Below are positions 2,011-64,000 of a stretch of DNA of 64,000 bases, piece after piece. A program made the translations under genes and the position numbers. Every line of letters starts with the position of its first letter. Position 1 is the first letter of the stretch. The notes beneath the pieces are model-generated. The model did not search any database. It was not told the DNA's origin and saw only the letters and a program-made list of their open reading frames with translations. The DNA is from Geosiphon pyriformis uo1 (Eukaryota; Fungi; Glomeromycota), in contig JAAOMT010000057.1 in assembly GCA_016748015.1 (NCBI GenBank), positions 15,228-79,227 on the forward strand, written 5' to 3'.

Positions 2011-2970
2011 TGTTACCAGACAAAATTAGAGATATTGTTTAGCATGAAATTACCCTTATAAATCTTATCAATAATTAGCATATATTATCATTTCAAATTA
2101 TCACTTATTACATTAGCAAAATATCCGAAATTATTATTTAATTAATAACTCAATTTGTACATAACACAAATATAACCTAATTGTGATGATTAATCATGCA
2201 ATACCCCAAACTATGTAATATTCAAAAAGTTTGCCAAAATAATTGATAGTTTGCCAAAATATCTAATAGTTCACAGAAATAACTTGTAGTTTACCAAAAT
2301 GTATCTTTAGTTCAGCAAAATTATAGAAAATAGCAAAGTTCAAGTTCATAGAATAGTGTTATGACAAGTTGTATAAAAGAAGAGCTTCTCTCTTCAAAGA
2401 AATATATCTTACTTTAGATTTAACAATTAGGATCATTCTTTACACACAAAAATGAAATAAATATCAAATAATTTGAAAAATCAAATTCTTAATTATTTCC
2501 CTTTTGAAATTAACCAATTCTTACTAAACAGTTTTGAAATTGATTAGCTACCAATTTCAATAAACTGTTAGTGACTTCAGGCCTGGATAGAAAACATTTC
2601 CCTTGATAAAATTCTATTTCTTTTACATTTCTTTTATTTTTCTTTTCTTTTCTTATTACAATCATTAAGGTAGCCTACAGACAAGATTCCTGTAGAAGAG
2701 TTGACTTTCATAGCAAAGTAACTACACAATTTTAGTGAGCTTCCAAACGAGCATTTCCTAGAAAAGAGTTGATGTTTACTACAATGTAACTACACAAGTA
2801 ATTGACATAGAATTGGCCATTCTACTTATAAGCCCAGCAGTTTAAATTATAGAAGATAATTTGAAGATAAATTCAGTTATTGGAGGTTCAAACACTTCCC
2901 ATAATCATGAATTAACAGCATTACAACAAACATACAAGAGCTAAGCAAAGACCAAAAACCTCTGATAATA
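2011..2970 (+). mobile_element. Solo LTR (LTR family 2), 960 bp, 4-bp TSD ATGT
   Basis: Starts TGTTACCAGA and ends TCTGATAATA (decayed TCTGGTAACA). ATGT flanks both sides (2007-2010, 2971-2974). Removing it restores CATATAGATGTTTAGTG, as in the uninterrupted LINE end at 62281-62297 (minus). Homologous to 62500-63479 in reverse orientation. Confidence 0.95.
2228..2322 (+). repeat. About 21-bp tandem motif array in U3 of the solo LTR
   Basis: AGTTTGCCAAAAT / AGTTCACAGAAAT / AGTTTACCAAAAT / AGTTCAGCAAAAT units, upstream of a TATA-like GTATAAAAG at 2371-2379. Confidence 0.8.
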
Positions 2971-7465: not shown

Positions 7466-7495
<30 letters not shown>

Positions 7496-7496
<1 letters not shown>

Positions 7497-9268: not shown

Positions 9269-10093
9269 TGTTACAGATGATTATTTAGAGTCTTAAATCA
9301 AATAACAAATCTATAACTTGGTGCTCAATAACTTGACAAGACTGGTGACACTAGTACATTGGTTGTATCTGAAGGTTTTAGAGTTGAGTCTTTTGTATAA
9401 TGAACAGAGATTTAATTGATGATTTTATCCGTAGCTTCCTGAAACTGCAGTTTCATCAAATTTTTTTCTCAGTGTGGTGGCCAGTAATCTTCCTGGTAAG
9501 CTATTCTCAAATCTATGAGTGTTCTACCCTTGTTTCACAGGTCTTTTACCAGTCCCTATGATGTCTGTATCTCAGTGCTTAATCTTTAATCACTTTTAGT
9601 AAAACCAAAAAAATAACAAAAGAAATAAAAGAAAATAAAAGAAAATAAAGAAATTAACAAAAAGCAATTGCAAATTAGTATTCTGTCAATAGCTGTGATC
9701 AAGAGCTATTGTTCCAGTGTGGTTAAGTATCAATTACTATTAACATGAAGTGTTGATAGTAAAGAGTGAATTAAGATAGTGAATAATTATTTATTGATAT
9801 TTGTGATTTGGAAAGTTGCTTAAATAAAATCTAAATGGAGAGGTCTTCTAACTAAGGATTCTTCTTTTTCTACTTCTAATGCTACCACTATATATACATA
9901 ATTGATGTTCTATAAGATCACTCATATTTTTAAGTAATGTGCTATGATTTCTTAAGCAATGCTCATATTGCTGAGCAATGTATTCTAATTTTCTGACATT
10001 GCTTCACATTGCTGAGCAATGTATTCACGTACTAAATACTATTTTCTTATTGGTCTGCTATTTTTTATATCTGTTTTTTTTTTATGAGTAACA
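9269..10093 (-). repeat. 3' LTR of Gypsy family 1
   Basis: Reads TGTTACAGATG...ATGAGTAACA on + and is a direct repeat of 18405-19228. Confidence 0.96.
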
Positions 10094-10108
10094 TTATCTC
10101 CTCCTTTT
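10094..10108 (-). promoter_or_regulatory. Polypurine tract
   Basis: AAAAGGAGGAGATAA on the minus strand, immediately before the 3' LTR. Confidence 0.88.
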
Positions 10109-10741
10109 AATATTGAACTTCATTAAAATCTTCGTTTTGAATTAATTCTAATACTTTTTTTTCAAGTATTGTTTGTTTAACTCTGTTCTTCACTTTTTCT
10201 ACTTGTGTATTGTTCATTCTTCCCTATTGGTTAATAGTTATGGTTTCCATGTCAAAGTATAATAGTATTTCTGAATAGTTCTGAAATATGTTGTGCAGTC
10301 AATAAATTGTTCTCACATGTAGTGTCAAGTTCGTCTTTTTTCTGATAAATTCTTCAATTTGCTGTATTATGTTTTGGTTAAATACTCTCTTGGATTTGTT
10401 GATATACAACTTCTGAATATTCAACTTTCGACCTAATTGGTAGTAACAATATAATATTGGAAGTTGTTCTGTCTATTGCTTCCAATTCTTTTTGTAAGTT
10501 CTTCTGTTGGTGCCATAATAAGTATTCTCCCAAAAGTGTTCTTTACTTTTTCTATTATGTTATCTGACCAGTTTTTATTATTTTTTGGTAACTGCTGATA
10601 TGGTATATTCTTTGTCTTTCTTTTGGTGTTTCAATAGCAAATTGTTTGGTTGTTAACAATAATTTTCATGTCTAATGGTTGTTGACTTATGGCCTGGAAT
10701 AATTGTTGAGCTATGGCATGAATATAATCTGGTATTTTCAT
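10108..10741 (-). pseudogene. Accessory ORF3 (about 210 aa, unknown function) between integrase and PPT
   Basis: MKIPDYIHAIAQQLFQ...WSDNIIEKVKNTFGRILIMAPTEEL / frameshift / TEQLPILYCYYQLGRKL...VRTIY*LHNIFQNYSEIL...INQ*GRM. Stops fall at CGA>TGA and TGG>TAG-type positions. Similar to the ORF at 63448-64000. Confidence 0.7.
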
Positions 10742-10874
10742 TTTTTTTGGTTGCCTTTGTTGCGTATACTGTGTTTTTATATACTTTTTTATTTGTTTAA
10801 TTTTACGTGTTTGGTTCAATAATTATGATTGGTTCCAGATCTTGTGGAATTTCATCTGGTTGGACTAGTATTCA

Positions 10875-12165
10875 TTGTACTCCTAATTGTGGAATGTTAT
10901 TGGTGAATAATGGTGCTATTTGGTGATATGGTTTTAGTCAATCACCATGTGCTGCTTTGGCTAAGATTTTGTTGTCTCATCTTAGTTTATAAGCTTCATT
11001 TCCAAGAATTTCTTTTATGTAAAATGGTCCATCTTATTTGGGATCAAATTTTCCACTCCATTGTTTTTCCACTTTGGTATGATATAGAAGTACTTTGTCT
11101 TCAATCTTGAATTCAACTGGTTTATTTGGTAATTGGTTATCATGCCGTTTTTTTTGCTTTTTTTGAGACTTTTGAATGTTATCAGCTGCTTTTTGTTGTC
11201 TGTTTTCTAGTGTTTCTATTAGGTCATATGTTCTTCTTAACAATGTTTTTTGGAAATTAGCTTCTGTTATTGGTTCCGTTGGATATGTGCTGACCTCTCT
11301 CTCAACTGGTAATGTTGCTGTCTTACTATATACCAATTCAAATAGTGTTGCTTGTGTAGTGTCTTGTCTTATTGTCTAATAAGCAAATAATACTGATGGT
11401 ATAAACAAATCCCATTCATCTTTGTTTTTTTGACTGATTTTGGCGATTACTTTACACAGTGTTCTGTTAAACCTTTCGACTAGTCTATTTGTTTATGAAT
11501 GATATGGTGATAATAATGGTCTTTTTATCCTAAATCTCTGACTTAATTCTGTTAATGTTCTATTTACAAAGGGAGTTTCTTGATCTGATAATAATTCTTT
11601 TGGACATCCATGTTAACAAATCAAATCTTGATGAATGAATTTGGCAACAGATTCTGCATCTGCTCTTTGAATGGCTTTTGCTTCTGGCCATTTTGTGAGA
11701 TAGTTCATAGCTACTGCAATATATCTGTTGCCTCTGTTGGTGATTGTTAATGGTCTAACTAAGTTGATTCCAATGTAATCAAATGGTTTGCTGGGTTTTG
11801 TTCCTCCTTTTCTTTGACAAGCATCACAACTTTAAACATATTAAATGATGTTTGAATACATTGATGGCCAATAGTATCTTCTTCTGGTTTTTTCTATGGT
11901 TGTTTTTTTATAAAAATGTCCTGCTGTTGAATCTGAGTGCATGTTAAACAATATTGTTTCTTTTTCTGATTCTGTAATTACTCTGGTTGGTTGGTCTGGA
12001 TTTCTTCTGTTTTTCTGGTAAAGTATATTTTGATGATTGATAAAATATTTTGATTGCTGTTTTATGTTGTTTTGTTTTTTTTGAGATAATTTCTCCTTGA
12101 ATGATTGAGTATTTATATAATGCTGGAGTTGTTGATATTTTTGTGTGTTCATCTTTTGTTATATT
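10875..12165 (-). pseudogene. Gypsy integrase (H2C2 zinc finger, DDE core, C-terminal domain)
   Basis: MHSDSTAGH...RRYYWPSM...SCDACQ, DYIGINLVRPL, LVERFNRTL, FKIEDKVLL...KFDPK*DGPF. Confidence 0.9.
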
Positions 12166-12199
12166 TTTGGGTTGAAATGTTTTTAGATTTGTCTTATTC

Positions 12200-13480
12200 A
12201 CAACAATCCATTGGCATTTCCATTGTTTTTTCTCTTTTTATAATGTACCATATAATTGAATGGTAAAAGTTCTATTTTCTATTTGACATGGCAATCATCT
12301 GCAAATTTTTGTTTCTGGATTGAAGTCAATCCTTTGTGATCCATATATATTTCAAACTTTTGGCTCAAGTATTCTCTCTATTTGATAACAGCCCAATAGA
12401 TTGCTAAGTGTTCCAGTGCTGGAGTTCCATAGTTCTTTTTTGCTGGGCTTAAATTTCTACTGGCATAAGTTACTGGATGCTCTTTTCCATTGGGTCTTTT
12501 CTGTGATAGTACTACTCCCAATGCTTAACCTGATGCATTGGTGGTAATTATGAATGGTTTGCTGTGATCTGAATACATTAATATTGGAGCTTGGATAAGC
12601 TTTTTTCTTAATGTGTCAAATGCTTCTTGTTGAGCTTTGATCCATTCATACTTCACATTTTTGGTCTGTAGATGGTGAAGTGGCTGAGCCAGTTTTGAAA
12701 AGTCTTTGATAAAATGGCAATAATAGTCTGTAAAATCTAAAAATACTCTTAGTTCTGTCAAGTTGATTGGTACCAGAAAGTTCTTAACTACTTCAATCTT
12801 GTCTGGATTTATTTTAATTCCATTTTTGCTCACTACATGTCCCAAAAACTTGAGTTCAGTTTTTTCAAAGAAACATTTGGTTGCATTTAGTTTTAATTCT
12901 GCTCTTCTCAACCTTTCGAATACTTGTTGGAAATAATGTAAATGATTATCAAATGTTTTTGAAAACACATTGGTGTTATCCAAGTATACAACTACTGATT
13001 TCCATAATAATTCAGTATAGACAATTTTCATGAGTTATTGGAATGTTGCTGGAGCATTTATCAAGCCAAATGGCATGACTTCAAACTCAAAATTTCCTTC
13101 TCTTGTGGTGAATACTATTTTTTCTTTGTTAGCTGGATCCATGGCTACTTGCCAGTAACCACTATCTAAGTCCAGTATTAAGAACCATTTATTTCCTCCA
13201 AAAGCATCGAATAGTTTTTGGATCTTTGGAGTTGGATAGCTATCACCTTTTGTTACTCCATTCAGTTTCCGATAGTCTACACAAAAATGGATTTTTTTAT
13301 TTTTCTTATGGACCAGTACTACTGGTGACAACCATGGACTTATTGATGGCTGAATTAGCCTATTGTTAAGCATTCAGTTGATTTCTTAATGAATGATTTT
13401 ATGGCTAGCAGGTAGTACTCTGTATGCTCTTTGTTTAATTGGCATTGTATTTCCAGTCTTGATCTGATGCTAGATGATGT
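12200..13480 (-). pseudogene. Gypsy reverse transcriptase and RNase H
   Basis: SPWLSPVVLVHKK...FCVDYRKLN...LDLDSGYWQV...VMPFGLINAPATFQ, VYLDN (decayed YLDD), KCFF...FLGHVV, PFIITTNASG. Confidence 0.95.
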
Positions 13481-13900
13481 TGATTCAGCCAAATTTATTT
13501 TTGCTAACAAAAATGTCATTAAAATTGTTGAGTAACATCTTGAGTTGCATCCATTGAAGTGGATCTAGATTCCCCATGTTCATCTGTTCCAATTGTTCTG
13601 ATTGGAGCAAGTAATATTCACTATGTCCATATATTGTTTGTGATGTGATGTCAACATATCCACAAAGCTGTGAAAAGTCTGAAATGTGATTTGGTAATTG
13701 ATCCTCAACTTCAGTGGTCAAATATTCAATAATAGTTCTCTTTGGTATTTCAATAACACTTCCAGTTGTGTTGTAGATAGAAATTTTGATGTTTTTGGGG
13801 CTTTTGGCTAATATGTAAAGATTAGTGAGTCCAATCTCTCCTGATTTGCAAATAGTGACTTCTGCTTTAAACAACTGAGCCTGATTCTTTACTTCTCTTT

Positions 13901-14420
13901 TTATATGTAACATATACTAGTTATATGGTGGAATGAAATTAATTGACAGTTTGAGATAATTTCTCTTTTGTCAATAACCTCTTCCTCTATTATATTAACT
14001 GGTATGTTTATTCTACCCATTGATCCAAATCCCTGTATCTTTTTAGCAGTAATCCCTAATTCTTCCCTGTTTCTCACTGACACTAATTGAGCTATTTTTA
14101 CCAAAGATAGGAATATTGCTTGTGCTATCTTTTCATTTGGCTCTATGATATAGGCCTTTTCAAAGTCATTTTGTAGCATAGCAATGATATTTCTCACATA
14201 CCTTGCATTAATTATTCCTTCTCTGATGTTGATTCCCTTTTTTGCTAGGCTACTCCCAAATGCTAATTGAACCATAGTTGTTGCTGGAATTTCCAGAGCT
14301 ATTTTGAGATCAATACATATGCACAAATTTGGTTCCAATTTAATGGCTTTTTTTTCTGGATATCTCAGATCAAACTCTGTGTTGGTATCATGCACACATT
14401 CTGGCATGATACCTTTATCA
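13901..14420 (-). pseudogene. Trimeric-type dUTPase domain within Gypsy pol
   Basis: Decayed dUTPase motifs: EFDL (AGFDL), GSSLAKKG (RSSLA), GIINARYVRNI (GIIDAGYVGNI), KIAQAIF, TAKKIQGFGSMG (RG..GFGSTG). Confidence 0.9.
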
Positions 14421-14659
14421 TTGTTACTATACTATTTGAGTTCCTGCTCTTTAGATAGATTAGGAAGTGCAATATATATTTTGGGATTTGAATCAGAATC
14501 TGAATTGCTGATATTTTCGTTGTTATTTTGAGCAGAGCTAGAACTGGTGTTTTCATTATCATCATTGTCGGAGTTTGAATTGGGATCAAAAACTGATTTT
14601 AATTCCAATGTGCAGCTGCTGATTGGTTCTTTTTCCTCTGGAATCGTGTAGATTATGTA

Positions 14660-15310
14660 CGGTGGTGAATTGTAAATGAGATCACACTCATTACAATATT
14701 GAAAGTCACATAGAATCAAACAGTGGTCACATAGTCGAGTGTTTAACTGTACTAACCACTCTTCCTGTTCTTCTCTTGTGAGTGCTAATTGCTGGTAGTG
14801 TTCATGGAATTCTTCCGGGTTATTCTCAATGTTGCCAAAAATGTCAAAAATTTAGATGTATTTGGGTTTAAGAAGAGATAAAAGATTGTTCTTTATTTCC
14901 AGTAATTTGCTGGTTGTTGCACCTTCTGCTTTTGTATATGCCATTCTCTAAAGTTCATGTTTATTGTGGAGATATCTTTCCAATCATTGTAATGCTTTTT
15001 TCTATGTGTCATCGATTAGTGTTCTCTTGCATACCTAGTTGTTTATCAAGATGATGTACTAACATGTCTCATTGCACATTCCTCTTTGCCCAGGAATGTC
15101 ATTCCACATTTCTTTGTCAGACAAGATTGTTCCACATACAAGACATGATTGGTTGTCCTACTTTCTTTGTCATTTTAGTTGTCCAAAGCACTTTATAACA
15201 CATGGGCGGCAGTAAAATCTGGTGGCAGTGGAGTATTCTTCATTATCGCCACAGCATGTGCCCATTGATGACAGTTTCTTGCCACAATTGATGCATATAA
15301 GCTTTGGTCA
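14660..15310 (-). pseudogene. Cys-rich putative zinc-finger region in pol, between protease and dUTPase
   Basis: Manual translation: LICINCGKKL...FYCRPCVI...SCLVCGTIL...GMCNETC...LCDHCLILCDFQYCNECDL. Confidence 0.7.
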
Positions 15311-15639
15311 ATAATAGTTGGTTGGTTGTAGTGGTGGGTGAGTATAAGTGGTATGGCTGTCTGTGAATGTTGATTCTTTTTCTTTTGTTTTTTCCTTCCC
15401 TTTTTCATTTTTATTCTCTTCCTACTCCCAATTTATCACTTCCTCTTGGTCTTTATTGGTTTCTCAGTTGTTGTTGATGTCTTAGATAAGTTCAGTTTCC
15501 TTTTGTTTCTCTTTTTCTTGGTCATCTCATGATATTATTGGCAGCAGTTCATTGTGGTCTTTGTCAGCCCACGAGACTTGGTAGGCTTCCCAGGTAGGTT
15601 TTTTTTTCTCCTCTTCAAACTCAATTAGGGGTGTTGTTG

Positions 15640-16030
15640 GGTTGGTCATCTTGAAGTGGCCACATGTGGCTGGTACCCATATGTGTTGACCGTTCTGACT
15701 GAGAGCCAGTTTTTGAGTCATCCAGTCAAGTACAGTGTTGGTTTTGGACAACCAGTCATTGCCAATGAGTGCCTAATATTGTGTTGCTTTCATCATGAAA
15801 ACTTTGATGGGTGTAATGATGCCATTGATTTCAATCAGTAAATTTTCAATTTTGCTGATTGGAGTTTTGGTTGCTCTATCAGCTGTGATGATGCGTGCAA
15901 TGGCAGCTCAATCAACTTGGCGACCTAATTGGTCTATGAGTTGTTTTGTGATAATGCTGCCAGCTAATCCACTATCTAATATTAGTTTGATAGACTGACC
16001 ATCAACTTTGGCATCCATGTACATGGCAGT
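15640..16030 (-). pseudogene. Retropepsin (aspartic protease)
   Basis: AKVDGQSIKLILDSGLAGSII (DSG motif), followed by an ALIGNDWL flap/C-terminal motif. Confidence 0.9.
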
Positions 16031-16239
16031 AATGGGTTTCTCCTCAAAGGCAGCTCCACTAAATAAAGGAGTTACTAATGGTTCTTTAAGTTCAAATGGG
16101 AAGATCGCAGCTAACAATTTGTTGTGGAAGATAGTTGTGAGTAGAATGTTGTTGGTAAGTGTCCTTTGGTTGATTTTCTGTGTACTGGGTGCAGCATCTT
16201 CTGGGCTAACCAAAAGACTTAAGTAGTTCTAAGAACTCA

Positions 16240-18350
16240 AGTTTTGGTTATACCCGGTTTTTGAACTCTACTGGCATGATCCTGATGGTTAATTTGATAA
16301 ACTGGGAATTGGTTGGTGAACCACTATCGCCAATCTTCAGTTTTGGGTTACTCTGGATCTGGGGTTTTCTAATGTTATTTGAACTGGGTTGAATGGTGGT
16401 GTTTGAACTACAAGTGCCTAATAAATTATTTGTGGTTGCAGTGGTTGATACATTACTGGTGGCTGTGGTTGATAGACTAGAGGTTAATATATGGGTGGTT
16501 AATATATTGGCTGTTGTGTTATTGGCAGGTAAGTCGGTTGATATGGTGCTGAGTTGGATTGGTAATTTGGAGTTAGGAACCAGCAATCGGGATTTTGATA
16601 TTGATTTCCTAATTGTTGATTATCTATTCTTAACCTACAGTCAATTCTTAAATGCCCTTGTTTACCACAGTAGTGGCAAACATGCATCTCCTGCTGTTAC
16701 TGCTGATTGGTCAAAGATGATATGCACAACTGATTCTAGAAACAATTCGCGTTTCCTTGATTATTGTGTCATTGTGGAGGTTGATAGATTGTCTGATTGT
16801 TAGCTAAGTATTCCTCTAATTTTTGGTTGATGAACTTACTGAATTGTTTTAACTTGGAATCCAATTCAGATGATCCATTCATCATTAGATTGACAGCTTG
16901 GACATGGTTAGCTTCGAGTTCAGCTGCTTCAAAATCTTTGGCATTGGTAACTGCAGCTTGAAGATCTGTTGGATGCATTGGATGTATGTGTTGGAGAATA
17001 CTACTATGCAGACCTCTAATAAATTGGTTTAGAATTTGTGGCACTGTGAAATAGTCAGTCTGGATTGCTTGAATTTGGCACAGATTCCTGTGGAAGCATC
17101 CTAAATAAGTAGTGACTGCTTCATTTTCTCCTTGTTTGATAGTGGTGAAAGTGTTTGCTAGTCAATTAATACTATTATTATTGTTGAAGTATTGTAGGAA
17201 TGCAAGCTTGAATGCATTATAATCCTGGAGTTTGTTAGTTAAGCTTTGATACCATGAGTCAGCAGTATCCTGAAGAAAATAAAGAAGGTCTACATGGCTC
17301 TGGCATCATTCCATCTATTGGCTGCAATGGCTTTTTCCGCTATACTTAGGCATCATCCTCTTTGCTGGTGAATTTTTCAATTTTGGCAATAGGAGCATAT
17401 GCCATTGGCACTACAATGTGTTATTGTGGTGGTTGAAGTGGCTGTGGTTGAATTAGTTTAATAATCAGTTCAATTGGTGGTTGATTTATGATGATATTTG
17501 GAGGTAAGTTTGGTTGATTGATTAAATCAGAGTTTAGAATATTCTGATTCTGCAGTGTTTAAATATTCTCGATTTTCAGATTTTTTTGATTTGTATTTTT
17601 CGGAGTTTGAACGTTCAGGATTTTAACTTCTGGGTTTTCTGGAATTGGGTTCTGGTAAGTAAATTCTTGATCTTCAGATTCTCTTTCTTCTTCCAATTCT
17701 GATGTTTCCTACAGATTGGCTATTCCAAAATCTGGTGGAGGTGGTAGTGATCGGATTTCTGATGGCGTTGATATTTGCGATTGAAATCCTTTAAAATATT
17801 CACCATATGGGCCTAGTAATTCTGTTTTCTTTTGTTTACTTTGGAATAAAAATTGTCTAAATGTTGATGTTGTATTTGATGTGGACACATTTGGTAATGT
17901 GATACAGATGGCGCTTCCAGAAGTATAATGATATGATGAATTTATAGGTGATTCAACTCTGTGTTTCTTCTAAGTAAGTAGTTGGATCCGTTGAGGTGTT
18001 ACTGTTGGTGTTTGTAGTTTTTCTTTGCCTTTACTTAAGTAGGTGATTGGGTATCTTTGTTGTGTGTGATGTTCAATTTTTTTGTTAATCTCAGTGATAA
18101 TAAATGTAAAATTATGATTTGTTGATAAGCTGGTGTTTTGTATTAATTTGTGGTAGAAAGTTCTCTTGCTGATTCAGTGTTTACTGGTGTTCTTAATAAA
18201 TAAGCAATTTTCTCATTGATGTAGAAATTGAAGGCTGATTCTACTGATATATGATTGTGATTTAATCCCAAGTGTTAACAGTAATGTTGAAATAAGGATT
18301 TTACAAATCCTAAATGGTTTGCTCCTATATTTTCTGATTCTGCCACTGTT
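16240..18350 (-). pseudogene. Gag (long N-terminal region, capsid, CCHC knuckle)
   Basis: QILNQFIRGL...AVTNAKDFEAAE capsid-like segment and CHYCGKQGHLRIDC zinc knuckle (about 16637-16678). Start codon not located. Confidence 0.85.
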
Positions 18351-18386
18351 GATTAGTTGTTAATGCTGGTTTTCTGTAGGATTATA

Positions 18387-18403
18387 CCTCACAGGGAGCA
18401 CCA
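18387..18403 (-). promoter_or_regulatory. Primer-binding site
   Basis: TGGTGCTCCCTGTGAGG, 1 nt inside the 5' LTR boundary. Complementary to a tRNA 3' end ...CACAGGGAGCACCA; the tRNA is not firmly identified. Confidence 0.85.
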
Positions 18404-18404
18404 A

Positions 18405-19228
18405 TGTTACAGATAATTATTTAGGGTCTCAAATCAAATAACAAATCCATAACTTGGTGCTTAATAACTTAACAAGGCTGGTGACACTAGTACATTGGTT
18501 GTATCTGAAGGTTTTAAAGTTGAGTTTTTTGTATAATAAACAGAGATTTAATTGATAGTTTTATCTATAGCTTTCCAAAACTGCAGTTTCATCAAATTTT
18601 TTTTCAGCATGATGGCCAGTAATCTTCTTGGTAAGCTATCCTCAAATCTATAAGTGTTTTACCCTTGTTTCACAGGTCTTTTACCAGTCCCTATGATGTC
18701 TGTATTTCAATACTTAATTCTTAATCAATTTTAGTAAAACCAAAGAAATAACAAAAAAAATAAAAGAAAATAAAAGAAGATAAAGAAATTAACAAAAAGC
18801 AATTACAAGTTAGTATTCTGTCAATAGTTGTGATCAAGAGCTATTATTCTAGTGTAGTTAAGTATCAATTACTATTAATATGAAGTATTAATAGTAGAGA
18901 GTGGATTGAGATAGTGAATAATTATTTATTAATATTTGTGATTTGGAAAGTTGCTTAGATAAAATCTAAACAGAGAGATCTTCTAACTAAGGATTTTTCT
19001 TTTTCTACTTCTAATGTTACCACTATATATACATAATTGATGTTCTACAAGATCACTAACATTTCTGAGCAATGTGCTATGATTTCTTGAGCAATGTTCA
19101 TATTGCTGAGTGATGTGCTCTAATTTTCTGACATTGCTCCACATTGCTGAGCAATGTGCTTATGTGCTAAATACTATTCTCTTATTGGTCTGCTATTTTC
19201 TATATCTGTTTTTTTTTTATGAGTAACA
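18405..19228 (-). repeat. 5' LTR of Gypsy family 1
   Basis: Direct repeat of 9269-10093, differing almost only by transitions. Contains a TATA-like GTATATATAG (about 19023-19032, minus) and palindromic U3 repeats. Confidence 0.96.
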
Positions 19229-52062: not shown

Positions 52063-52411
52063 AATATTATTTTTAAATAAATTAATTTTAACAATTATAT
52101 TTGTTTAAAATATAATTTATAAATTAAAATAAAACTTAATTTAACAATTAATTTAAAATTCAAATAATTTTATGACTAAAATAATATTCTAAACACTTTA
52201 AATTTCAAGCTCAGTTAAAAAAACTTCAATAAAAATTTTTATTATCATCCAATTTAAATTTATAAAAATTTTTAAGTTTAAATATAAATAAAAGTATATT
52301 GAAATAAATATAATTTAAGATTTATTATATATTAAAATCATATAAAATATATCTTTTATAAAAGATTTAAATAATTATTATTATTTGCCAATGAAAAATA
52401 AATTATATCTA

Positions 52412-54148
52412 TTAAGAGTTGTCTAAATATAATAAATAGTAAAATCAGTATTAATTAATGGCACCACATAATTATATTATCAATTTTTTTTCAGCTACTT
52501 ACCTTCAGGCAAATAGACTAATTCTTTTATAAATTAAAATAAAATTTTAATATAAAATACTATATACACTGTATAATAATTAAATAAATGAATTAATTAC
52601 TTTTAAATTAAATTAAAATAAACTAACCTTTAGAAAAATCAACTATTTGTGCAGTTAAAAGACGACTTGTATAAACTGCACCTGGATGAATTACTGTTGT
52701 TGTTGTTGTTGTAGTTTTTGTTGTTAAGTAATTTGTTGTCGCGTCGTTCTTCCACATTTCTTTTATATAGTTTTGTGATTCTAAAAACTGGCGACATACA
52801 GTTTTAGACACTTCATCCGTAGACATCTTTGCTAAATACTGCTTATATATCTCCCAAAGTTCCTCCAACTTTTTATCAACTTCCTTGGCAGTAGGACGAT
52901 TCTCAGGATTAACATCCCAACACTTTATAATAATTTCGGCAATTGAAGGTGGAATAAGGGGGAAGGTAATTTCAGGTCTTTGACCATTTAAAATATCCAT
53001 TATAAGAAGGTGGTCATGAGAACGATCATGAAAAGGAGGTTTCCCTGTTGCTAATTCCCATAATAACATTCCTAAACTATAAATATCACCAGCTGTTGTA
53101 AACTTTTCTCCTCTTAAAACTTCTGGTGGAATGTATGGAATCACTCCAAATATTCCTTTCTTTTCCTCTGTTGCTTTTCCTCTTGTTGTTGCTTCATTAT
53201 TGTTTACTGATTGACATAATCCGAGGTCTCCAATATTTACGCTATAAGTATTTGATTGTAGTATATTGCCCGAGTGTAGGTCACGATGAACCATACCAGA
53301 AGAATGAATTGAATCAAGTCCAATAACTAATTGATGCACGATCCTTAATTTATCAGACCAACTAGTAGAATGAAAATTTGTTGATAAATATTTTCTCATG
53401 TCTCCATGTTCGGCAAACTCCATCACAATTCCATACTCGAGTGTTTCAGCGTTTTGGGTAATCCCATAAATTCTAGAGATACGATATAAGCGCTCACCGT
53501 TATTAATAAACATAGCTCTTTGAATATTTAACTATCAATAGAGTATAAAAAATCATAAATTAATAATAAATAGATAATAGAATAAATAATAGACGTTAAT
53601 ATACAGTAAATAAATAATAGGTAAAATATGAAATAATTAAATCTGAACTAAAGTTTAAATAATAATACTTTGTTTACCTCTTTGAACACTTCTAAACTGT
53701 TCGTTGGGATAATTTTTATTGCTACTTCCTTTTCTCGCTTTCTTTCATATTTCATTTCACCATTATGTTTTATAGTAGATTTATTAATTAATCCATTAAA
53801 CCATGTTGCTTTATAAATTATACCGAACCCTCCTCTAGCAATTTCCTTAATATTCGACAAACGTTCCCATGGAATCCATTCATAATAAATCAAATAATCA
53901 TCATCATATTCATCATCATCATCATCATCATGATTATTATTAGGTGGAATATAGATTGGATTCTTTATTATTTCATCAGCTTCTTTATTGCCGCTTGAAA
54001 AATCTTTATAAAGTTTTTCAAAAAATATGAAGTGGCATGCATTACAATAATTATCACCATTATCTTTAATACTCTTTTGACACGGTTTACATAAGTTGCA
54101 ATCATGAGCCTCTGGACGAGTTGTTCTTTTAATTTCTTTGTTTTTCAT
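52412..54148 (-). CDS. TKL protein kinase, paralogue 2. Exons 54148-53678, 53531-52628, 52523-52503, 52422-52412
   Basis: ARGGFGIIY, VAIK, HRDLHSGN, DLG, GVIPYIPPE. Same intron positions and 21-nt micro-exon as paralogue 1, reading frame intact. Confidence 0.92.
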
Positions 54149-55149
54149 GATATGGAATAAAGGAAAAAGGAAAAAGGAAAAAATGTGAATAGGTTATTTA
54201 TTCGAATAAGGATTATTTAAAGGTTTATTTGATAGTACGTTTAGAAAATAATTTGTTTAAAGTTCTTATTTAAATTGTTTCTCAATTTATTTATCAGACT
54301 GTGATTCGTTACAACAGTAACAATAACAGTAACAGTAACAAATTAGGCTTCGTGTGAAGCATATGATTTAATTATAAGACTAACTCCTAAATTTACTTGG
54401 ATTCTCTAAATATTAAACCTAATTTTGGAAGTTATGGTTTAATAATAATTTTTTGGTTGTATAACACTAAAACAGAAAAGGTTTATTAATAGTCGCTTTC
54501 TATTTTATGTTTTGACCTCAGTTTTAATATTCTTAATATATAATATATTTAAAAAAAATTTTATTATTATTTTATTGTTGTTTTTTGTTTTATATTTAAA
54601 TATACATAAATTTTTAACCTTTTTATTATTTTTTCTACTTTTTCTTTTTTTTAAGTATAAAAAAAAACTTGTTTTAACTTTGTATCTTTTATTGTTTGTT
54701 TTTTGTTTTTTTTACTATTAATAATTAAGATTTGTGTTAATTATAATAATATTTTTAATTAGATTATTAGCTATAAAATTGAATAATAAATTATTTTATA
54801 TATATAAATACAATAATAATTTTTGTATTATTAAAGTAATAATAACAAAGTTAATATTAATAAATAATTATAATCTAAATACTAAATAATAAATATAAAA
54901 CTTTATTTTCAAACAATAAAAAGTAAAAAATATATAAAAATTCAGTAATAATTAATTAATATTTAATAAAAATATTAATTATATTATTAAATTTTATAAA
55001 TCTTTGATTTTTAATTAATATAATTAAAATATTATTTAAATATTAAAATATATTATATTAAACAATATTAATTTAAATAAACTTTAATAAATATAAAAAA
55101 TTGCTAAATTAACTCATCTATAATATGTAATATTATTTTATATTATAGT

Positions 55150-58100
55150 TTTTTATTTATTATTTATTTATTTTATATAATACTTTATAAGTAAAATTCA
55201 ACTATTATCTAATACATAGACCCAAACTAAGTGGTCCAAACTAAATACAGTTTATGTTTTTACTACATATAGCCAGCCATTTAGACCAAACAAAACAACA
55301 CTATACATATATATTAACATAAACATTCCCACTTAAACCAGAAAAAAAAGAGCACAGCTTATATTTACTAAAACTAATAGTAAAAAATTTCACAATATTA
55401 AACATTCAAACTATTTTATCTAATAACATAAAAACTATACTACAAGATATATCCAAAACCAAATCATTATTTTTGACCAAACTAGCTTTTTTCATGACTG
55501 CTTTATGTTTGAATTTTATAAGCTATGTTTTAGTACAATATAATTTTACCAAATAATTCACATACTTAACAAAAACAGAGGCAGTTTTCTTTTTTCTATT
55601 AAAAACCATAACAGCTTCAACATATCAGTTTTTTAACACAAAGCTTTTGCAAATTGTTATATACAAATTCATATCAAAAGAACACAAAACAAACAATTGC
55701 AAAACAACAAAAGAAAACAAGCAAGAAACACTCATCAATAACACATAATTTACAGAAGCTTTAACCAAAATGTCTTCTTGAATACTAATATTCTCAACAC
55801 AAGTAAAAACATGATCAGATAATTTCATCTTATCATACAATAAACACAACACATTAGGATATACTTTATTATATAATCTCTTCTTAATCACTATTGACAG
55901 TTATTTATGTACTACCTTTATCAAATATGTGTGTAGATTGGCAGAATTTTTACTAATAAATCCAGACAGCATATATAAGTTAAGATATTAGATTTTCACA
56001 GTAGCTATCCAATCTATTTTTTTTAATAACACACTAGAAACCATATTATAACTAAAACCAGCTTTTTATTAAACACAACAAATTGACCTGTACAAATCAC
56101 AAATAAAATAACAAGTATTGTTAGATACAGCCATTTTTTTAACCATCAAAAACCATTTTTAAATCCCAACCAGCAAAGAAAAAGAAGAGTGAGCAACTGT
56201 ACTTGTAAGCATATTAGTTCTGATATTGTCTAGAACACCTGAATGTTTTTTAACCTTCACTTACTTAACAAAAAAATTTTTGTCTATAATCAGATTAAAA
56301 ACATGCTTTTATTTAATCTAACATTGATTATGAAAGTTAAATATATTAAACAAAGTTTTAAAAACACATACATCAATTGCAGATTGGCTATCCAAATACA
56401 AAACAACTACACAAAAAGATAAAACACACTCTAAAACTAAAACAACAGCTTGTAATTTAGCTATAGTAGAGAAAAAAAGCTCATGCATTTTAACACTAAT
56501 ACTTATATTTAAAGCTAAAAAGTAAGCAGCCACTTTACTAGCAATCTTAACAGAATCAGTATATTGCAAAGATCTATTCATGTAAATCTTGAAAAAATCA
56601 GACTATATCTCAAGCAAACTTTTTTACATACCAAAAAACTTTACAGATTCCAAAACACCCAAATTAATTAACTCACAGATAATAACAAATCCAACTATTA
56701 AAAAATTCTTACTATGTAAAAACTCAAATGCTAACTTAAATCAATAAGGCACAAAACTCTTTGAATTTAATCTTTTCTATTACCAAAATGTTTTTTAGTC
56801 TATTATAATCTCTTTTCTGTTTAGAAATTTGTTACTAAACACAATACCAAACTGTTTCAAAAAAAGAACAAAGCTGTAATACAAAGATTGTTTTAAGATA
56901 TTAGATATTAGAAATCTACCAAAACCACAAAAAACATTAGGCAAATTGTTTGCCAATAATAATTAGTTGTTTAAAAAAATTTTTACTATTTTTGCCAAAA
57001 AATTATTTATTGGATTAACATGTAATTTAACAAAAAACTGCAAAAAATTCAGAAAAAACTATCCTAAAATCTGTAAATCCAAAAATCTATGCTCAAATAA
57101 GCATCCAAAAATGCTCTGAACATTAAAAAAAGCAATCAATAAAACCACTTTGTTTTTAAACTGCACTTGTTTAAAGAGTTCAAATCATATAAAAATGAAT
57201 AATACAAAGTCTTATTAGAAAAGTTCTATAATAAACCAATCTTGGCTTTAAAACTCTTTTTAATTATTATATCTTACTTGTAATACACACCCAATAAAAC
57301 AAAACTAAACTGTATTTAATAGCTAACTATAGACTATAAGACAGCTGACATTAAGTAAGAAAACTGTTTATTTGTAATTGTTTTTCTTAATACTATATTG
57401 GAAAAAAATCTGACATTTGCATAAACCCAAGTCAAGCTAAGCTTAAAAAAACTCTTAATAAACAAAAAAATATCCAAGTACCTATGTAATTCACTTTTTT
57501 TGACAATTAAAATTAGCAAACTACTAATTAACAATAAGACAGTTCTAATGTCTTGATTAATAAGAATAGTTACTGTTTTATTATTATTAATTAAGATATT
57601 ATTAATATTAAAAAACTTACTGGCAATATTCAAGATATACTGTGTAAAAGCTTGACTACTCTTAATTTAAATTGTATTATCAACAAAGACATCAACAGTA
57701 AAAAAAAAAAGTCATCTTACTAATAGCTTCAATTTGACCAATCTTTGTCATAAACTTAGTATTAATTTAGTACTTATATAAATAATTATGCCTCTTAATC
57801 TTGTACAACAACAAATCATAGAAAATTTTTCAAAAGAAAGAAGAAAACACTTCACCTTAATCCAAATCATTGTGTACTCTATAACTATTTGAAAGTCCAA
57901 AATTCATCATTATTCTGTTAATCTGATTCTTATAAATACTATTAAAAAACTTAATAAACTGGCTGTATATCTTAATGTATTACAAATTGGCTCTTAGATA
58001 ATATCAGTCTACTAAATTATAAGCTTTGTGTATATTCTGCAATACCAACTAAAGCTCTCTATTTTTTTCTAAAGTGTTTTTAATAATTAATTCAATGGCA

Positions 58101-61100
58101 AAAATAAGAGATTGTATTGAAATACTTTTTAACACTGAAAAGTTATTACTATAAAAAATGTCAAATTTGTTATATGCTAATGATATCCAATCAAAAAAAA
58201 TCTTAGATAAAATTTTCTGAATCATTTTTATCAGAGCAATAGACTGAGTATTTGTTAAGATGTTATTTTATTTATAAGATTTCAAAATTATTAAAACTGA
58301 TATTCTTGTTTAAGAAATTAAAACCACATCTGAAGTCAAACACAAATTTAAAATTCCAAAAAACAATTTAACATCTTATTATCACAATGTTTCTACAGTT
58401 CATTAAGTATCTTTGACAACTCAGCAGTCTTGCTATTTAGCAAATTATCAACAACCAAAATTAACTTTTTCATATCAATTTTTTTTATTACATCAAAAAA
58501 AACATTATCATCTATATAATTCAGAGACATATATTGGTAAGACTAAAGGTCAAACAATCTTAAAAACACTGACCACTTCTTTATCCACTTTTCTATTATT
58601 TTATTGTTTCTAAGTTATATCTCATCAGATTTTGTCACCAATTTATCTCTTTTTACTAAATAATTCAAAACAACTTTGTAAAATGGTTTTTTTAAAATGC
58701 TCTTTATCATTTACCCCTTATCAGAACAGAAATTTTCCATGTAATACTTAATCATCTTCCTAATAGCTGTATTTTCAGATGCTTTTAATTTATAATACTT
58801 AGATTTCTAATACCTTTTCTTTATTATTAACAAATGTTTCATTAATTTCATTAAACTTATATCAATTTAAATCATGTTAGTAATCTTACATGTTTTAACA
58901 ACATCAACAGTTAACTAAATACTAACAAAACAGTTAAATTTCACCAGATTTCCAGGACATTATTTTTTTACAATTTTTGCAATAAGCAGTTTTAATTTAA
59001 AAAACTTTAAAGATTATTTGTTTTTTTAACAATCATATTTACTATATCAATGTTTAGAAAACACCACATTAGCAGCTTGTACTATGGTCTTCTTTAGTAT
59101 TTTCTATATTACATCCAAGTTATTACAGTTTTTTGTCTTTTCAAACACATTTGAATTTATTTATAACTTATTAAAAAATAGCTCTTTAAATCATAACTAC
59201 TTAATATTATTTATACCTCTTAGTTTGAACTTCTACTGATTCTTATTAACTTGTTTGTGAATACTACCAAAACAAACATTTAGAAAACCACCCAAACTGA
59301 TTGATACTGAAACTGTTTTATAATCTGTATTAAAAAATTTTGACACAACATTGATTTTATGGCATGTAACTGCAGATGCCAAATTTTCATTCACAAAAAT
59401 AAAATCCAACACCTTCTTAGCTCTTCTAAAATTGCTCTAAGTATAAGCTATAGCCAATAAATATCTATTAAATGTATTAACCAGATTTAAATCCAAACAA
59501 AACTTGAAACTTACACTTTTTTTAAATCTATTTTCATTAAAGTCACTACTTAGAATCACAAAAAAACTAGAGTTAACTGCTTTAGAGATTATGAAATTGA
59601 TATCAAAAACTTGACCAAATCATATATCAACAGATATACCAACATATAAATTCAAAATTGTAACTAAAAGCTTATTTTTGAATAAAAGGCATATTAAAAT
59701 CAACTGACTTGAAATTTTATTCACTTTTAAAACATGTTGAACTAAAAAGCTGTTCATATTTACAGCAATACCAGCACTTAAAAAACTCTTATTCAAATCA
59801 GAAATAAAAATATGAACTCTATCAAACTTATTTATAATCCACAGCCTAATTTTAGACTTCAATTTTGTTTTAGTAATAATAAAAATTATGTTACTTAAAT
59901 TCATATGCCAACAAACAATATCTTTTTACTTAGCAAAGACATTGAAATTTCTAATATTATAAGTAGCAAACTTCTATACTAGATCTATTATTAAGAAAAA
60001 AAATCTTTTATACTTAAACTAAAATTGTCTATTTTGGCCATTAAGCCTATAACTGTAGTTAACAGATTGTTTATATTTTTTCCAACTTTGAAATAAACAA
60101 TTAATCAAAAACTACTGTTTCTACAACAGTCTTATTACTAGTAACTATATCTAAACCTTCACTTATTATTATATCTGCTTCTTAATTCTGTGATAAAAGA
60201 GTCATTAACAGCTAATGTCTAAGGCTAGACTGGAAAACTGTTGGCTCAAATATGTCCAATCTCTTAGTTGGCTTATTAATCTGCTTTACAAAACTGGCAA
60301 AACTGTATTCAAAAGTGGCAAATCTATTATTTATATTCAAAAAAACCAGTGGAAGAGACTTCATCTTTAAAAAAAAGCCAGAATTTAATAAACTATTATG
60401 TACAAAAAGAGAAAAAAAAGACTTACCACCAATTTTAGTTCAAGAAACACCACCAAAAGCCATTAAACAAGCAATAAAAACTAAGTATTTGGCATAGATA
60501 ACTGCCAATTTGCTTTTATCTGTGTTCAATAATACTTTCTAAAAAAAAGCACTATAGAAAAAATTTCTATTTACAGAATAGCTCAATAATATATAATCTA
60601 AATTTTTACACTTGGCAGAGCTTAAATAAGACCAGTATAGATTGGCATCTTTTAGCATTGATGTGGTTTTTATGGTAGCATTCAATAATACAGCAAAGTC
60701 AAAACAAACAACTGCACATCTGGTTTAAGCATATATAACTGAATAACAGTTAATAATACATGTTTTTCATCTACTGAATTAATATAATTCCAAATATTAT
60801 GTGCATTTGTTTCTATTGATAAAGTATACAGCAGTACTCTATAATCATCTCTTGTATTCTATAATTTCTTGTTCTTATCAGTTCTAGCTATACATATTGT
60901 ATTTTTCCCAATTAGGACAGACTATCTTGTTGTAACCAAATTACCATGATTTATCTTATTGAATTTAATTACAGTTTTTTGTCACAGTCTTACTAACTGT
61001 ATTTTGATTGACTTAATCAATCCAAAATCAGAAAGCACAGTACATACAGCCTTAGCCAACTTTTAATTGGAATTTTTTTATCATTACAGTTTGATTTGAG

Positions 61101-61870
61101 CACATTATCAATTTTTTTAGATTGGTGTTTACCAAAATATTCACAGTTTTTGCTTTTTTAATAGTCTATAGCAAGTTTAATTTAAATGTAAAAATAGCAC
61201 AAATAATTTTAGCAGGTTTTAAAGGAGTAAAAACTCTCCTAAAACTATTTATTTTTGAAAACAACTTTTTAATCACCACAAGCTTTTTTTGAAACAACTT
61301 TTTAATAACTTTGTCCAGACTAATATCCAAAACAAATAATTTCTTAAACTAAATTTTTTAGTGGTAGAGGAAAAAACACAGAAGCATCCAAAAAAATTTC
61401 ATTATTATCTATATTTAAGAAGTTGATTTTTTTTAGAAATGTACTTAAAGCTTTTTTTGTTATTAATATTAGTTTCTTTAGCATTTGGCTATGATTTTTT
61501 CTGTTAAGCACATTTTTTTTGCCATAATTTATACTGGTTTTCTCTACTAAAAACTTTTTTTTCATATTAATACTATCAAATTCAGTTATATTATCAATAT
61601 TAAAATTTCAAGAAGTCTCAACTACTCTTTCTAAAAAAACTATCTTATTAATAGCACTATTCTTCAAAGTGCTTTTTTTTTTTCTAGAAACAATATCTTT
61701 GTTATTAGCATCAAAACCAAAGTTCTTGATAAATTTTTTATAACAACAATACTACAGCCAATAATAGCTTTATAATTAAGTAAAAACAGTTTGGATTTAT
61801 TATACTAAATAGAAAAAACTTTTTTGACTTTTTTTTGAAAATTTGGGATGAAAAAAAAAGAAGTTTTTTT
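55150..61870 (-). mobile_element. LINE copy H, full length but heavily decayed
   Basis: Fragments of all domains in order: KKKFLVEKTS (from EEECLVEETS), LFKNKLLVTILNLY, NNKTVTILIN, KLQAVVLVLECV, CLLY..SDHVFTC. 3' UTR at 55185-55304, 5' end like copies B and F. Confidence 0.9.
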
Positions 61871-62149
61871 ATATTTTCAATTATATATATATAAACATAT
61901 TAAAAAATATTATAATTGTTTATAACAAAGTTTTTTTTAATTATAAAACATTATAAATTATTTAAGATATAATAAAAAATAATATAATCTATATTTAATT
62001 TTATATAAGAATAAATTTATTTTAATTAAACTAATATTTATTAAAATTATTAATAAATAAATATTAAGATTCTATATATATTAATATTACATATTATGAA
62101 TAAGTCTAATAATTTTCTAAATATATTATTATTACTATTTTAAATATAT

Positions 62150-62499
62150 ATTTTTTTTATTAACATTTTACAAGCAAGGTCCAAATATTACCTAGTACAA
62201 TACATCAATTGATTAATCTAAACTAGGTGTGAATCATGTATTTTCTACACGTGACCAGCCACTCAGGTTAATCAAAACCACACTAAACATCTATATGCAC
62301 TAAGACCAAGTCTCCAATACCTGAAAAAAACAAACAAAATTTACAAAAACCAAAACCAACACCAACTGTCTCAGCAATACTCAGCAACTTAACAACATCT
62401 GCAAAAAGCAATGCAGGCAGCCCTGAAATTGAAACTACAGCTGAACCGTTACTAAGTATTATACCACTCTTCTCTATACAGGCATGATGCTTAGCACGG
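62150..62499 (-). mobile_element. LINE copy I, 3' end, interrupted by LTR family 2
   Basis: Terminal ORF2 codons (RAKHHACIEKS...FGFCKFCLFFSGIGDLVLVHIDV*), 3' UTR at 62165-62285 and poly-A. Confidence 0.9.
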
Positions 62500-63479
62500 T
62501 GTTACCAGAGGTTTTTGGTCTCTTTTCTGTAATGTTGTTGATATTTATTTGCTGTGAATTCACGTTTTCTGGATGTGGTTGAACCTCCAGTAACTGAATT
62601 TATCTTCAAATTATCTCCTATAATTTGAACTTGCTGGGCTTATGAGTGGAATGGCCAATTCCATGCCAGTTGCTTTATGTAGTTACATTGTAGTAAACAT
62701 CAACTCTTTCCCAGGAATTGCTCGTCTGGAAGCTCAATAAAAAATGTGTAGTTACTTTGCTGTGAAAGTCAACTCTTCTACAGGAATCTCATCTGTAGGT
62801 TACCCTAATGATTATGATAAGAAAATAAAAGAAAATAAAAGAAATGTAAAAGAAATAGAATTTTATCAAGGGAAACGTTTTCTATCCAGGTCTGGAGTCA
62901 CTAACAGTTTACTGAAATTGGTAGCTAATTAATTTCAAAACGTTAGTTGGGTTTTGGGGATTTTTTCAAGTACAATAATTAAAGAATTTGGTTTTTCGAA
63001 TTATTTGATATTTATTTTTTTTGTGTGTATAGGAACAGTTCTAAGTGATAAATCCAAAGTAAGATACATTTTCTCGAAGAGAGAAGCTCTTCTTTTATAC
63101 AACTTATTGTAACACTATTCTATGAACTTGAACTTTGCTATTTTCTATGATTTCGCTGAACTAAAGATACATTTTAGCAAACTACAAGTTATTTCGGCGA
63201 ACTATTAGATATTTCGGTGAACTATCAATTATTTCGGCGAATTTCTACAAATTTCGGCAAACTTCTAAATGTTACATAGTTCGGAGTATTGTATGATTGA
63301 TCATCACAATTAGGTTACATTTGTGTTGTGTACAATTTGAGTTATTAATTAAATGATAATTTCGGATATTTTTGCTAATGTAATAAGTGATCATTTAAAA
63401 CGATAATATATGCTAATTAATAATAGGAATTATAAGATAATTTCATGCTAAATAATATCTCTAATTTCGTCTGGTAATA
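62500..63479 (-). repeat. 3' LTR of an LTR family 2 element that continues beyond the window
   Basis: Reverse complement of solo LTR 2011-2970, with ends TGTTACCAGA...TCTGGTAATA. It retains more CpG. U3 array (TATTTCGGCGAACT)n at 63170-63265. Confidence 0.94.
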
Positions 63480-64000
63480 TAACCTCCTCCTCAAGACTGA
63501 GCTCCATCAAAGTCCAAGTACTGTCTGTTATTTCCAGATAATAATCCAAAATTATTGAAGAAATTTGGTTTGAAAATTGTTGAAATTTCAGTTCTGTGAG
63601 CTTTCCAATGTATTGAATCTTCAAAGATTGAAAAATTGGGTTTTGTAGTACATTTTTACAGGTGTAAAATAGGTCATAAAGTCTAAGAGCAGCTCTAAGC
63701 CTGTAGCGACTATTTGTTAATCCAGCTGTTGTCTTGAATTCATTGTGGAGTTGTTTCTGAATAGCTTCTTTTGTGAGGTTTGCTGTTGTAAGTTCCAGTT
63801 TCCATTTGTAGAGTGTTTTTCCAATGTGAAAATATCTATAGATTGGAGGATATTCAGTGTTTTCCTCATTGAGGCACAGTTGAAGTTTTTGTTGAATTGT
63901 AGCATTTGGTGGAATACTAATCAGAGTGAGCATTAGGTTTTCTCTTAAAGCAAGCTTTAAAAGTTCTGGCAGGTGAATTCCAGTATAACTTCTTGTGTTC
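63448..64000 (-). CDS. Accessory ORF3 of LTR family 2 (5'-partial, unknown function), reading through the PPT into the LTR
   Basis: Open frame from the window edge: NTRSYTGIHLPELLKLALRENLMLTLISIPP...YPPIYRYFHIGKTL...RAALRLYDLF...IQYIGKLT...EEEVILPDEIRDII*. Confidence 0.75.
   Translation of the reverse strand, partial: NTRSYTGIHLPELLKLALRENLMLTLISIPPNATIQQKLQLCLNEENTEYPPIYRYFHIGKTLYKWKLELTTANLTKEAIQKQLHNEFKTTAGLTNSRYRLRAALRLYDLFYTCKNVLQNPIFQSLKIQYIGKLTELKFQQFSNQISSIILDYYLEITDSTWTLMELSLEEEVILPDEIRDII
63480..63492 (-). promoter_or_regulatory. Polypurine tract of LTR family 2
   Basis: GAGGAGGAGGTTA on the minus strand, directly before the LTR. Confidence 0.85.

Follow-up and report, generated by a model that had tools for sequence, protein, structure and literature searches.

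The stretch of DNA analysed here (the window) is 64,000 nts of contig JAAOMT010000057.1 from the glomeromycotan fungus Geosiphon pyriformis uo1, and two families of long terminal repeat (LTR) retrotransposons within it, family 1 and family 2, each carry an additional sense open reading frame (ORF), termed ORF3, in the position of env next to the 3′ LTR. The window is AT-rich and consists almost entirely of repeats: nested remnants of long interspersed nuclear elements (LINEs), a decayed full-length family 1 element, a solo LTR and the 3′ end of a family 2 element. CpG is depleted across it (observed/expected, o/e, 0.2). LTR elements make up 41.2% of the G. pyriformis genome (PMC11952901).

The family 2 element occupies 62500-64000 on the minus strand. 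Its 980-bp 3′ LTR (62500..63479) interrupts a LINE within its 3′ part, and ORF3 (63448..64000) is represented by the C-terminal 183 of about 239 codons, as an open frame (63448-63999) that is cut by the window end and whose start is beyond it. The encoded fragment corresponds to residues 57-239 of a 239-aa Geosiphon protein, with 90% identity. Within ORF3 is the polypurine tract (PPT), GAGGAGGAGG, at 63483..63492 (minus strand). ORF3, PPT and LTR are all that the window holds of this element; pol is outside it, and the order of ORF3 after integrase is seen only in other copies. The solo LTR of the same family (2011..2970, plus strand) is 85% identical to the 3′ LTR and has a clean 4-bp target duplication, ATGT.

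The family 1 element (9269-19228, minus strand) is complete in extent. Its 5′ LTR (18405..19228) and 3′ LTR (9269..10093) are 91% identical, differing by 70 transitions and 3 transversions, and palindromes of the form CATTGCT-N-AGCAATG are present in U3, the 5′ part of the LTR. A putative primer-binding site beginning TGG (18387..18403) is followed by a decayed internal region (10810..18386) with capsid, protease, a Cys-rich insert, dUTPase, reverse transcriptase (RT), RNase H and integrase, then by a broken copy of ORF3 (10107..10741) and a PPT (10097..10108), all on the minus strand. The coding order, from a weakly matched Ty3-type capsid through aspartyl protease, dUTPase, RT and RNase H to integrase, is that of Gypsy; paired LTRs, primer-binding site, PPT and the protease-RT-RNase H-integrase order of pol place the element in Ty3/Gypsy. 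The ORF3 copy starts with an ATG at 10741 and ends with a stop codon at 10109-10107, the PPT coming immediately after; a frameshift near 10490 and four in-frame stops interrupt it, and an intact relative is P0196 (211 aa). Decay runs through the whole element, pol included. The flanking tetranucleotides (9265-9268 and 19229-19232), which read GCAG and GTGG along the element, agree at two positions and are separated by transitions at the other two. A first-pass annotation of the window had placed a sense ORF just before the PPT in both families. Such an ORF is indeed present in both, and the peptides quoted for it were found in both, but its relation to the PPT is not the same: in family 1 ORF3 stops before the PPT, while in family 2 it continues through the PPT and terminates about 30 nts within the 3′ LTR.

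The central proposal of that annotation, that the two ORF3s are homologous while the LTRs beside them are unrelated, is borne out on both counts. The LTRs have in common only ends of the TGTTAC...GTAACA type and a T-rich patch of 37-41 nts. For the proteins, BLASTP of family 2 with family 1 gives 19% identity over 103 aa (E=3e-4); the local score of 72 is reached by none of 2000 shuffles (mean 33.5), and the same holds for full-length P0009 compared with P0196 (0/2000). Profile-profile comparison of the two families yields E=1e-4 and a probability of 57% over 163 columns, N-termini included. The metagenome protein P0151 bridges them, with 32% identity to family 2 and 25% identity over 203 aa (E=7e-12) to P0196. 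[Identities by codon position, about 0.6 for position 2 and 0.3-0.46 for positions 1 and 3, carry no weight here, since an alignment guided by the proteins biases them.]

ORF3 is not confined to these two elements. Of 315 candidates from a search with the window ORF, 212 proteins reached E<=0.001, and among the 120 matches listed 119 are G. pyriformis hypothetical proteins (67-94% identity), the other being unnamed; a mixed ORF3 profile run against 1.84 billion representatives retrieved 72 proteins. The 196 proteins collected are distributed over lineages F2a (97), F2b (45), F5 (18), F1 (15), F3 (13) and F4 (4), with four single metagenome proteins, and the 20 representatives whose origin was checked comprise 16 from Geosiphon and 4 from metagenomes. 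In Geosiphon the family has five lineages or more, and its metagenome relatives number four. Scans of IMG/VR with ORF3 and with integrase gave no relative.

The metagenome contig L001, the one locus among the 597 metagenome stretches that the scan covered, shows the arrangement in a single piece: RT-RNase H, integrase, a gap of 316 bp, ORF3 with its own ATG, a PPT and an LTR starting TGTTAC. Its ORF3 reads through the PPT into the LTR (3080-3148), as in family 2, and so, judging from the peptide, does that of P0160; all three have a tail of the ELSLEEE type. An integrase tail precedes the ORF3 part in 15 of the 196 gene models, belonging to F2a, F2b, F3 and F5, and in none from F4. Between L001 and family 1 the identity is 55% for integrase and 48% for RT-RNase H, and the integrase tail of other family 2 copies is likewise 55% identical to that of family 1. 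ORF3 identity across these lineages is far below that of integrase, at 19-32% (24-32% for L001 with the window). On these sequence identities the ORF3-bearing elements are one Gypsy clade in which ORF3 and the LTRs diverge much faster than pol. With integrase tails 55% identical the two families are not distant Gypsy groups, and ORF3 was probably inherited within the one clade. A tree of 18 ORF3 cores, with long branches and an unresolved backbone, supports the lineage groups only, and not a donor or direction of transfer. ORF3 recurs from lineage to lineage, in numerous copies, at the same place after pol and before the 3′ LTR, and it is under selection; it is a conserved additional ORF (aORF).

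Evidence for that selection comes from variants among assembled contigs of one run, as distinct from whole copies, which were scored site by site, with contig depth not taken as copy number. There are 40 variants at 12% of depth or more in 63480-64000 and no indel at that level; the family 2 LTR, for comparison, has two 1-bp deletions above 10%. Of the 33 shared variants (12-80%), 19 are synonymous where the same mutation classes predict 10.0 (P=4e-4), and outside CpG context the figure is 17 of 26, with 7.8 expected (P=5e-5). A further 7 differences, near fixation and found in the window copy alone, look neutral (2 synonymous; 2.7 expected). In the other five frames 5-10 of the 33 would be synonymous, the exception being the antisense frame whose third positions coincide with those of the ORF (16, P=0.04). 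No frame gives as strong a signal as that of the ORF itself, where the ratio is about 0.34. Two of the 40 variants were scored as stops, both in one codon that varies at all three positions, where single-site scoring is unreliable. Purifying selection acts on the family 2 ORF3, and the first-pass view of an old, selected ORF agrees with both this synonymous excess and the homology across several lineages.

That the product is not an envelope protein had also been claimed, and hydropathy accords with this. The maximum Kyte-Doolittle value for any 19-mer is 0.27-1.29 in 10 of 10 proteins, with no candidate transmembrane anchor, and the N-terminal 11-mer does not exceed 1.3 in any of 8, with no signal peptide by hydropathy, the only measure applied. 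The proteins hold 0-3 cysteines. Pfam, PDB sequences and PDB and BFVD structures gave no env, chromodomain or viral fusion glycoprotein match for ORF3, though such absence does not exclude one. By these sequence measures ORF3 is not env, and hydropathy shows its protein as soluble.

What sort of soluble protein it may be is indicated by structure prediction. The first AlphaFold model, built on the family 2 alignment only, was poor (predicted local distance difference test score, pLDDT, 44.8). With a 23-sequence alignment that included the Entrophospora protein P0194, described below, P0151 was modelled at pLDDT 79.7 and a predicted template modelling score of 0.64. The model has an N-terminal helix and β-hairpin, a loose linker and a helical core at pLDDT 85-97, and in the core a helix (126-141), a G-K-T-N-like turn and a second helix (146-160) make up a basic segment that is predicted to be helix-turn-helix (HTH)-like. 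Net charge over residues 124-160, in P0151 numbering, is basic in 10 of 10 proteins. Among 10 lineage representatives G108 and F160 of the core are invariant, and 9 retain Y102, L111, R155, L167 and I195. Across the family the similarity of the N-terminal module is weak, the family 2 profile beating shuffles (<=5/300) in 6 of 9 other proteins. Of the first-pass description as small, basic and helical, the helical part is upheld by the model; basic is true only of the predicted HTH segment.

The most distant relative retrieved is P0194 from Entrophospora sp. SA101, the last match of the large profile search (E=8e-4 among 1.84 billion) and absent from the query profile. It is the C-terminal domain of RING-finger proteins, and its nearest ESM Atlas clusters are unnamed Mucoromycota proteins (0.93-0.96); the window protein itself had low recognition there, with nearest clusters also unnamed. 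A profile of the ORF3 core alone scores P0194 at 20 bits (0.4 for the reversed sequence; 0/300 shuffles), and comparison of the ORF3-core profile with the P0194 family by hhalign gives 44% and E=2e-4 over 83 columns; with only the family 2 profile the figure is 14%. The Entrophospora proteins (P0194, P0202-P0205) share the Y-x-x-x-G-x-x-L and R-x-Y-x-x-F pattern of the core, fused to a RING finger and lacking the ORF3 N-terminal module. The ORF3 core is probably homologous to their C-terminal domain, and there is moderate support in this for the first-pass suggestion that the pattern resembles a large family of Glomeromycota hypothetical proteins. No match was found between P0194 and plasmids. 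ORF3 gives a first handle on this unnamed Glomeromycota domain.

Beyond the fungi, two weak leads point to DNA-binding domains. DUF1016_N (PF17761) is the commonest Pfam match, with 7 of 38 family 2 members (best E=0.004, P0009 at 12.9 bits), and the only one of P0194 (E=0.008, 16.8 bits); all these matches are below its gathering cut-off of 32.8 bits. In the literature DUF1016 is an element that possibly binds nucleic acid and has restriction and mobile-element genes as neighbours (PMC3424549). The second lead is structural. Among the top 50 rows of a VIA-align comparison with the model, those of the ParB family are Spo0J (Z 3.9, root-mean-square deviation (rmsd) 5.3, 90 residues aligned over model 78-207), KorB (Z 3.6, rmsd 5.1, 95 of 114 aligned) and ParB on parS (Z 3.2, rmsd 3.1, 59 aligned); sigma-F is also present (Z 3.6, rmsd 2.4, 57 of 57 aligned). 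By VIA-align's own calibration these rows are leads only. The HTH_ParB Pfam profile weakly matches two DUF1016_N regions (E=1e-4 and 7e-4 per record), and the two leads therefore concern one structural neighbourhood; the match suggests that DUF1016_N may itself be a ParB-like HTH. The regions in question are bacterial DUF1016 N-terminal regions, L004 (W02 1548-1739) and L010 (W08 57301-57435). The DUF1016_N/YhcG N-terminal domain and the ParB HTH of Spo0J and KorB resemble ORF3 in motif spacing, and the ParB rows span the entire helical core; unlike them, ORF3 has no nuclease or ParB N-terminal domain, and all the scores are below cut-off. A ParB sequence comparison gave no signal but is uninformative, its 3-sequence profile having failed the DUF1016_N comparison as well. 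PDB sequence searches with the ORF3s gave nothing below E=0.3, a second VIA structure comparison nothing at Z>=5 among 984 chains, and PHROGs and NCBIfam scans scattered weak matches only. A match to FtsQ in 5 of 23 members was rejected, being confined to family 2.

Candidate targets for a DNA-binding protein are found in the LTRs, each of the three having a distinct one. The U3 of the family 2 LTR has an array (63150..63261, minus strand) of CpG-bearing near-palindromes like TTCGNCGAAA at a spacing of about 20 bp, with 7 matches in the LTR at <=2 mismatches (1.3 expected); the family 1 palindrome has 3 and 4 matches (under 0.1 expected), and TTGCCCTAG in the L001 LTR has 3 plus 1 on the opposite strand (0.07 expected), counts which describe these motifs rather than test them, since each was chosen by eye from the same LTR. 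The most over-represented 6-mer of the L001 LTR is TGCCCT, with 4 occurrences there, and it recurs twice in the gap upstream of the L001 ORF3 (0.05 expected; 0/300 simulations). In this gap TTGCCCT-like repeats at a spacing of 21-22 bp (2230-2290) match the LTR motif and are a possible internal promoter. The family 2 3′ LTR keeps 17 CpGs (o/e 0.79), compared with 1 in the neighbouring ORF3 and 2 in the solo LTR, and 12 of the CpGs of the 3′ LTR read TG or CA in the solo LTR. Such retention would fit a protected LTR, but would fit a younger copy or an ordinary promoter as well. In Rhizophagus transposable elements are CpG-methylated, many recent Gypsy copies showing little of it (PMC8647823), and CpG methylation is likely in Geosiphon too.

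The reading preferred here, at a probability of roughly 0.4, is that ORF3 encodes a DNA-binding protein which acts on its own LTR to sustain transcription of the element; taking activator and repressor variants together, a DNA-binding LTR regulator has about an even chance. ORF3 is a conserved third gene of a Ty3/Gypsy clade, between integrase and the 3′ LTR, and its product would be a soluble protein of HTH type, with a predicted small N-terminal α-β-β module and helical core. It would bind lineage-specific repeats in its own LTR, protein and LTR sites co-diverging, and would keep the element transcribed in a host that probably methylates CpG, by activation or anti-silencing rather than by repression. 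Because ORF3 has its own ATG, separate from pol, its expression would be from an internal promoter or a spliced RNA.

Several results weigh against this. The fold search envisaged in the first-pass annotation found no significant match: Foldseek with the P0151 model gave 0 matches at E<=0.001 in PDB and BFVD, VIA-align no Z>=5 over 48,161 chains, and unrelated helical bundles (Z 4.0-4.6) outscore the ParB rows. Profile-profile comparison of DUF1016_N with ORF3 (hhalign) has a probability of only about 2%, and in shuffle tests 2 of 10 DUF1016_N proteins pass at the 1% level. Whole ORF3 proteins are not uniformly basic, the isoelectric points of nine being 4.9-9.3 and the window fragment having 20 K+R and 20 D+E. 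Tandem U3 motifs in LTRs are ordinarily enhancers for host factors. The motif was not found upstream of the family 1 ORF3, the corresponding region of family 2 being outside the window, and the solo LTR, with the same motif array, has lost its CpGs.

The basic helical segment would suit other roles also. One is an integration-targeting or pre-integration-complex factor, binding chromatin or cDNA ends and steering insertion in place of a chromodomain. The integrase tails of family 1 and L001 end 40-45 aa past the SH3-like part, with no chromodomain found beyond it, nor is there a Pfam chromodomain match in the decayed family 1 tail ORF or in ORF3; most fungal Gypsy elements have this domain (PMC3248453). 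Moreover, all three LTR insertions of the window are located within LINE remnants. However, nested insertion is to be expected anyway in a window so rich in repeats, and a factor recognising a shared host mark need not diverge much faster than integrase, which leaves targeting unlikely, if not negligibly so. The same helices could instead contact element RNA, for Rev-like export, packaging or suppression of RNA silencing. ORF3 is after all small and soluble, a phage translation-repressor cluster is near it in the ESM Atlas (0.89-0.91, with low shared-feature counts), and a related fungus has small RNAs that target its transposable elements (PMC8647823). Most of the weak structural leads, though, are to DNA-binding domains, and no RNA-binding family in Pfam, PHROGs or NCBIfam matched, nor did any Rfam element in the window; an RNA-level role is a little harder to credit than targeting.

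If the protein does bind its LTR, the sign of its effect could be the opposite one, the same fold dampening transcription to control copy number. All DNA-binding leads fit such a self-repressor equally, and recurrence of the LTR motif upstream of the L001 ORF3 is what a feedback loop would show, but the elements have reached high copy number, with 212 protein matches and the LTR share of the genome given above (PMC11952901), and self-repression is distinctly unlikely. The env position of ORF3 raises the thought of a protein that takes the place of env in a structural or movement role but does not fuse membranes, and that might for instance carry particles from one nucleus or compartment of the coenocytic mycelium to another. 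An ESM Atlas cluster of closterovirus coat proteins (0.91-0.93, again with low shared-feature counts) leans that way; lack of a transmembrane or signal segment, the few cysteines and the absence of any viral structure match in BFVD make it improbable. Lastly, a captured host gene fragment, carried as a functionless passenger, would explain the related domain of the Entrophospora RING proteins and the broken family 1 copy. This is largely refuted, and very improbable: shared variants have a synonymous excess with no common indel in the ORF, protein similarity was kept while the LTRs lost theirs, and in family 1 the whole element, with pol, has decayed and not ORF3 alone.

Extra ORFs in Gypsy elements are already known. 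In plants, conserved ones between pol and the 3′ LTR of Ty3/Gypsy elements have undetermined roles (PMC7264820), and the antisense TRP28 ORF of Retand has been proposed to bind DNA and regulate transposition (PMC11963269). These plant aORFs, env-like sense ORFs and TRP28, are like ORF3 in their conserved position in most copies, whereas ORF3 is fungal, sense and without a membrane segment, and matches neither TRP28 nor any Pfam family above cut-off. The LTR elements of bdelloid rotifers resemble those here in having dUTPase and a non-env ORF3 common to lineages; there, however, ORF3 encodes recognisable enzymes, a GDSL esterase and a DEDDy exonuclease (PMC5408684), and here a helical orphan without catalytic family match. 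A survey of fungal Gypsy elements marks an 'additional ORF with unknown function' in a figure legend and includes PosPlaTy3-5, which like family 1 has dUTPase between protease and RT (PMC2864245). With those elements comparison was by description only, and in family 1 and L001 no chromodomain was found. No description of this ORF3 family was found in the literature, of which coverage was incomplete, and this non-env family is apparently undescribed.

As a model, the closest analogy to the preferred reading, regulation of its own LTR by ORF3, is with VANC, the anti-silencing proteins of the Arabidopsis VANDAL transposons (PMC5735166): a fast-diverging transposon protein, family-specific tandem motifs in non-coding transposon DNA and a methylating host. 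No sequence or fold link with VANC was found, and what was observed here that bears on anti-silencing is motif arrays and CpG counts. VANDALs are DNA transposons. A more ambitious version is conceivable, though unlikely: in a Gypsy clade of an early-branching mycorrhizal fungal lineage, an HTH DNA-binding gene of ParB/DUF1016_N-like ancestry, common with the fungal RING proteins, would fill the env slot and co-diverge, lineage by lineage, with a CpG-bearing LTR array. Gene and array would make up a sequence-specific anti-silencing system, VANC-like but independent in origin, and with its help LTR elements would have come to occupy about 41% of the Geosiphon genome.

For the function of non-env extra ORFs in LTR retrotransposons this family is an unusually testable case: a single genome has five or more of its lineages and numerous intact copies, the model is confident, and each of three LTRs has a candidate motif of its own. 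The 'hypothetical proteins' that match ORF3, over 200 in number and nearly all the named ones being Geosiphon gene models, are one retrotransposon gene.

Other features of the window may be briefly noted. Many diverged LINEs, which encode RT and RNase H and have AAT-rich tails, occupy 1-2005, 7480-9260, 19230-24350, 32890-35010, 37500-44370, 45000-51250 and 55000-62496, and a scan of the window with Rfam gave 0 matches. The family 1 dUTPase (13904-14431, minus strand) is between protease and RT, as it is in some fungal Gypsy elements (PMC2864245). Between protease and dUTPase is the Cys-rich insert (window 14500-15600, minus strand), of about 350 aa with several CxxC pairs and no Pfam match, which may be a second accessory domain, one that binds zinc. 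Among the repeats there is also a pair of tyrosine-kinase-like genes (35380-37134 and 52411-54247, minus strand), 82% identical to each other and typical of expanded Glomeromycota families.

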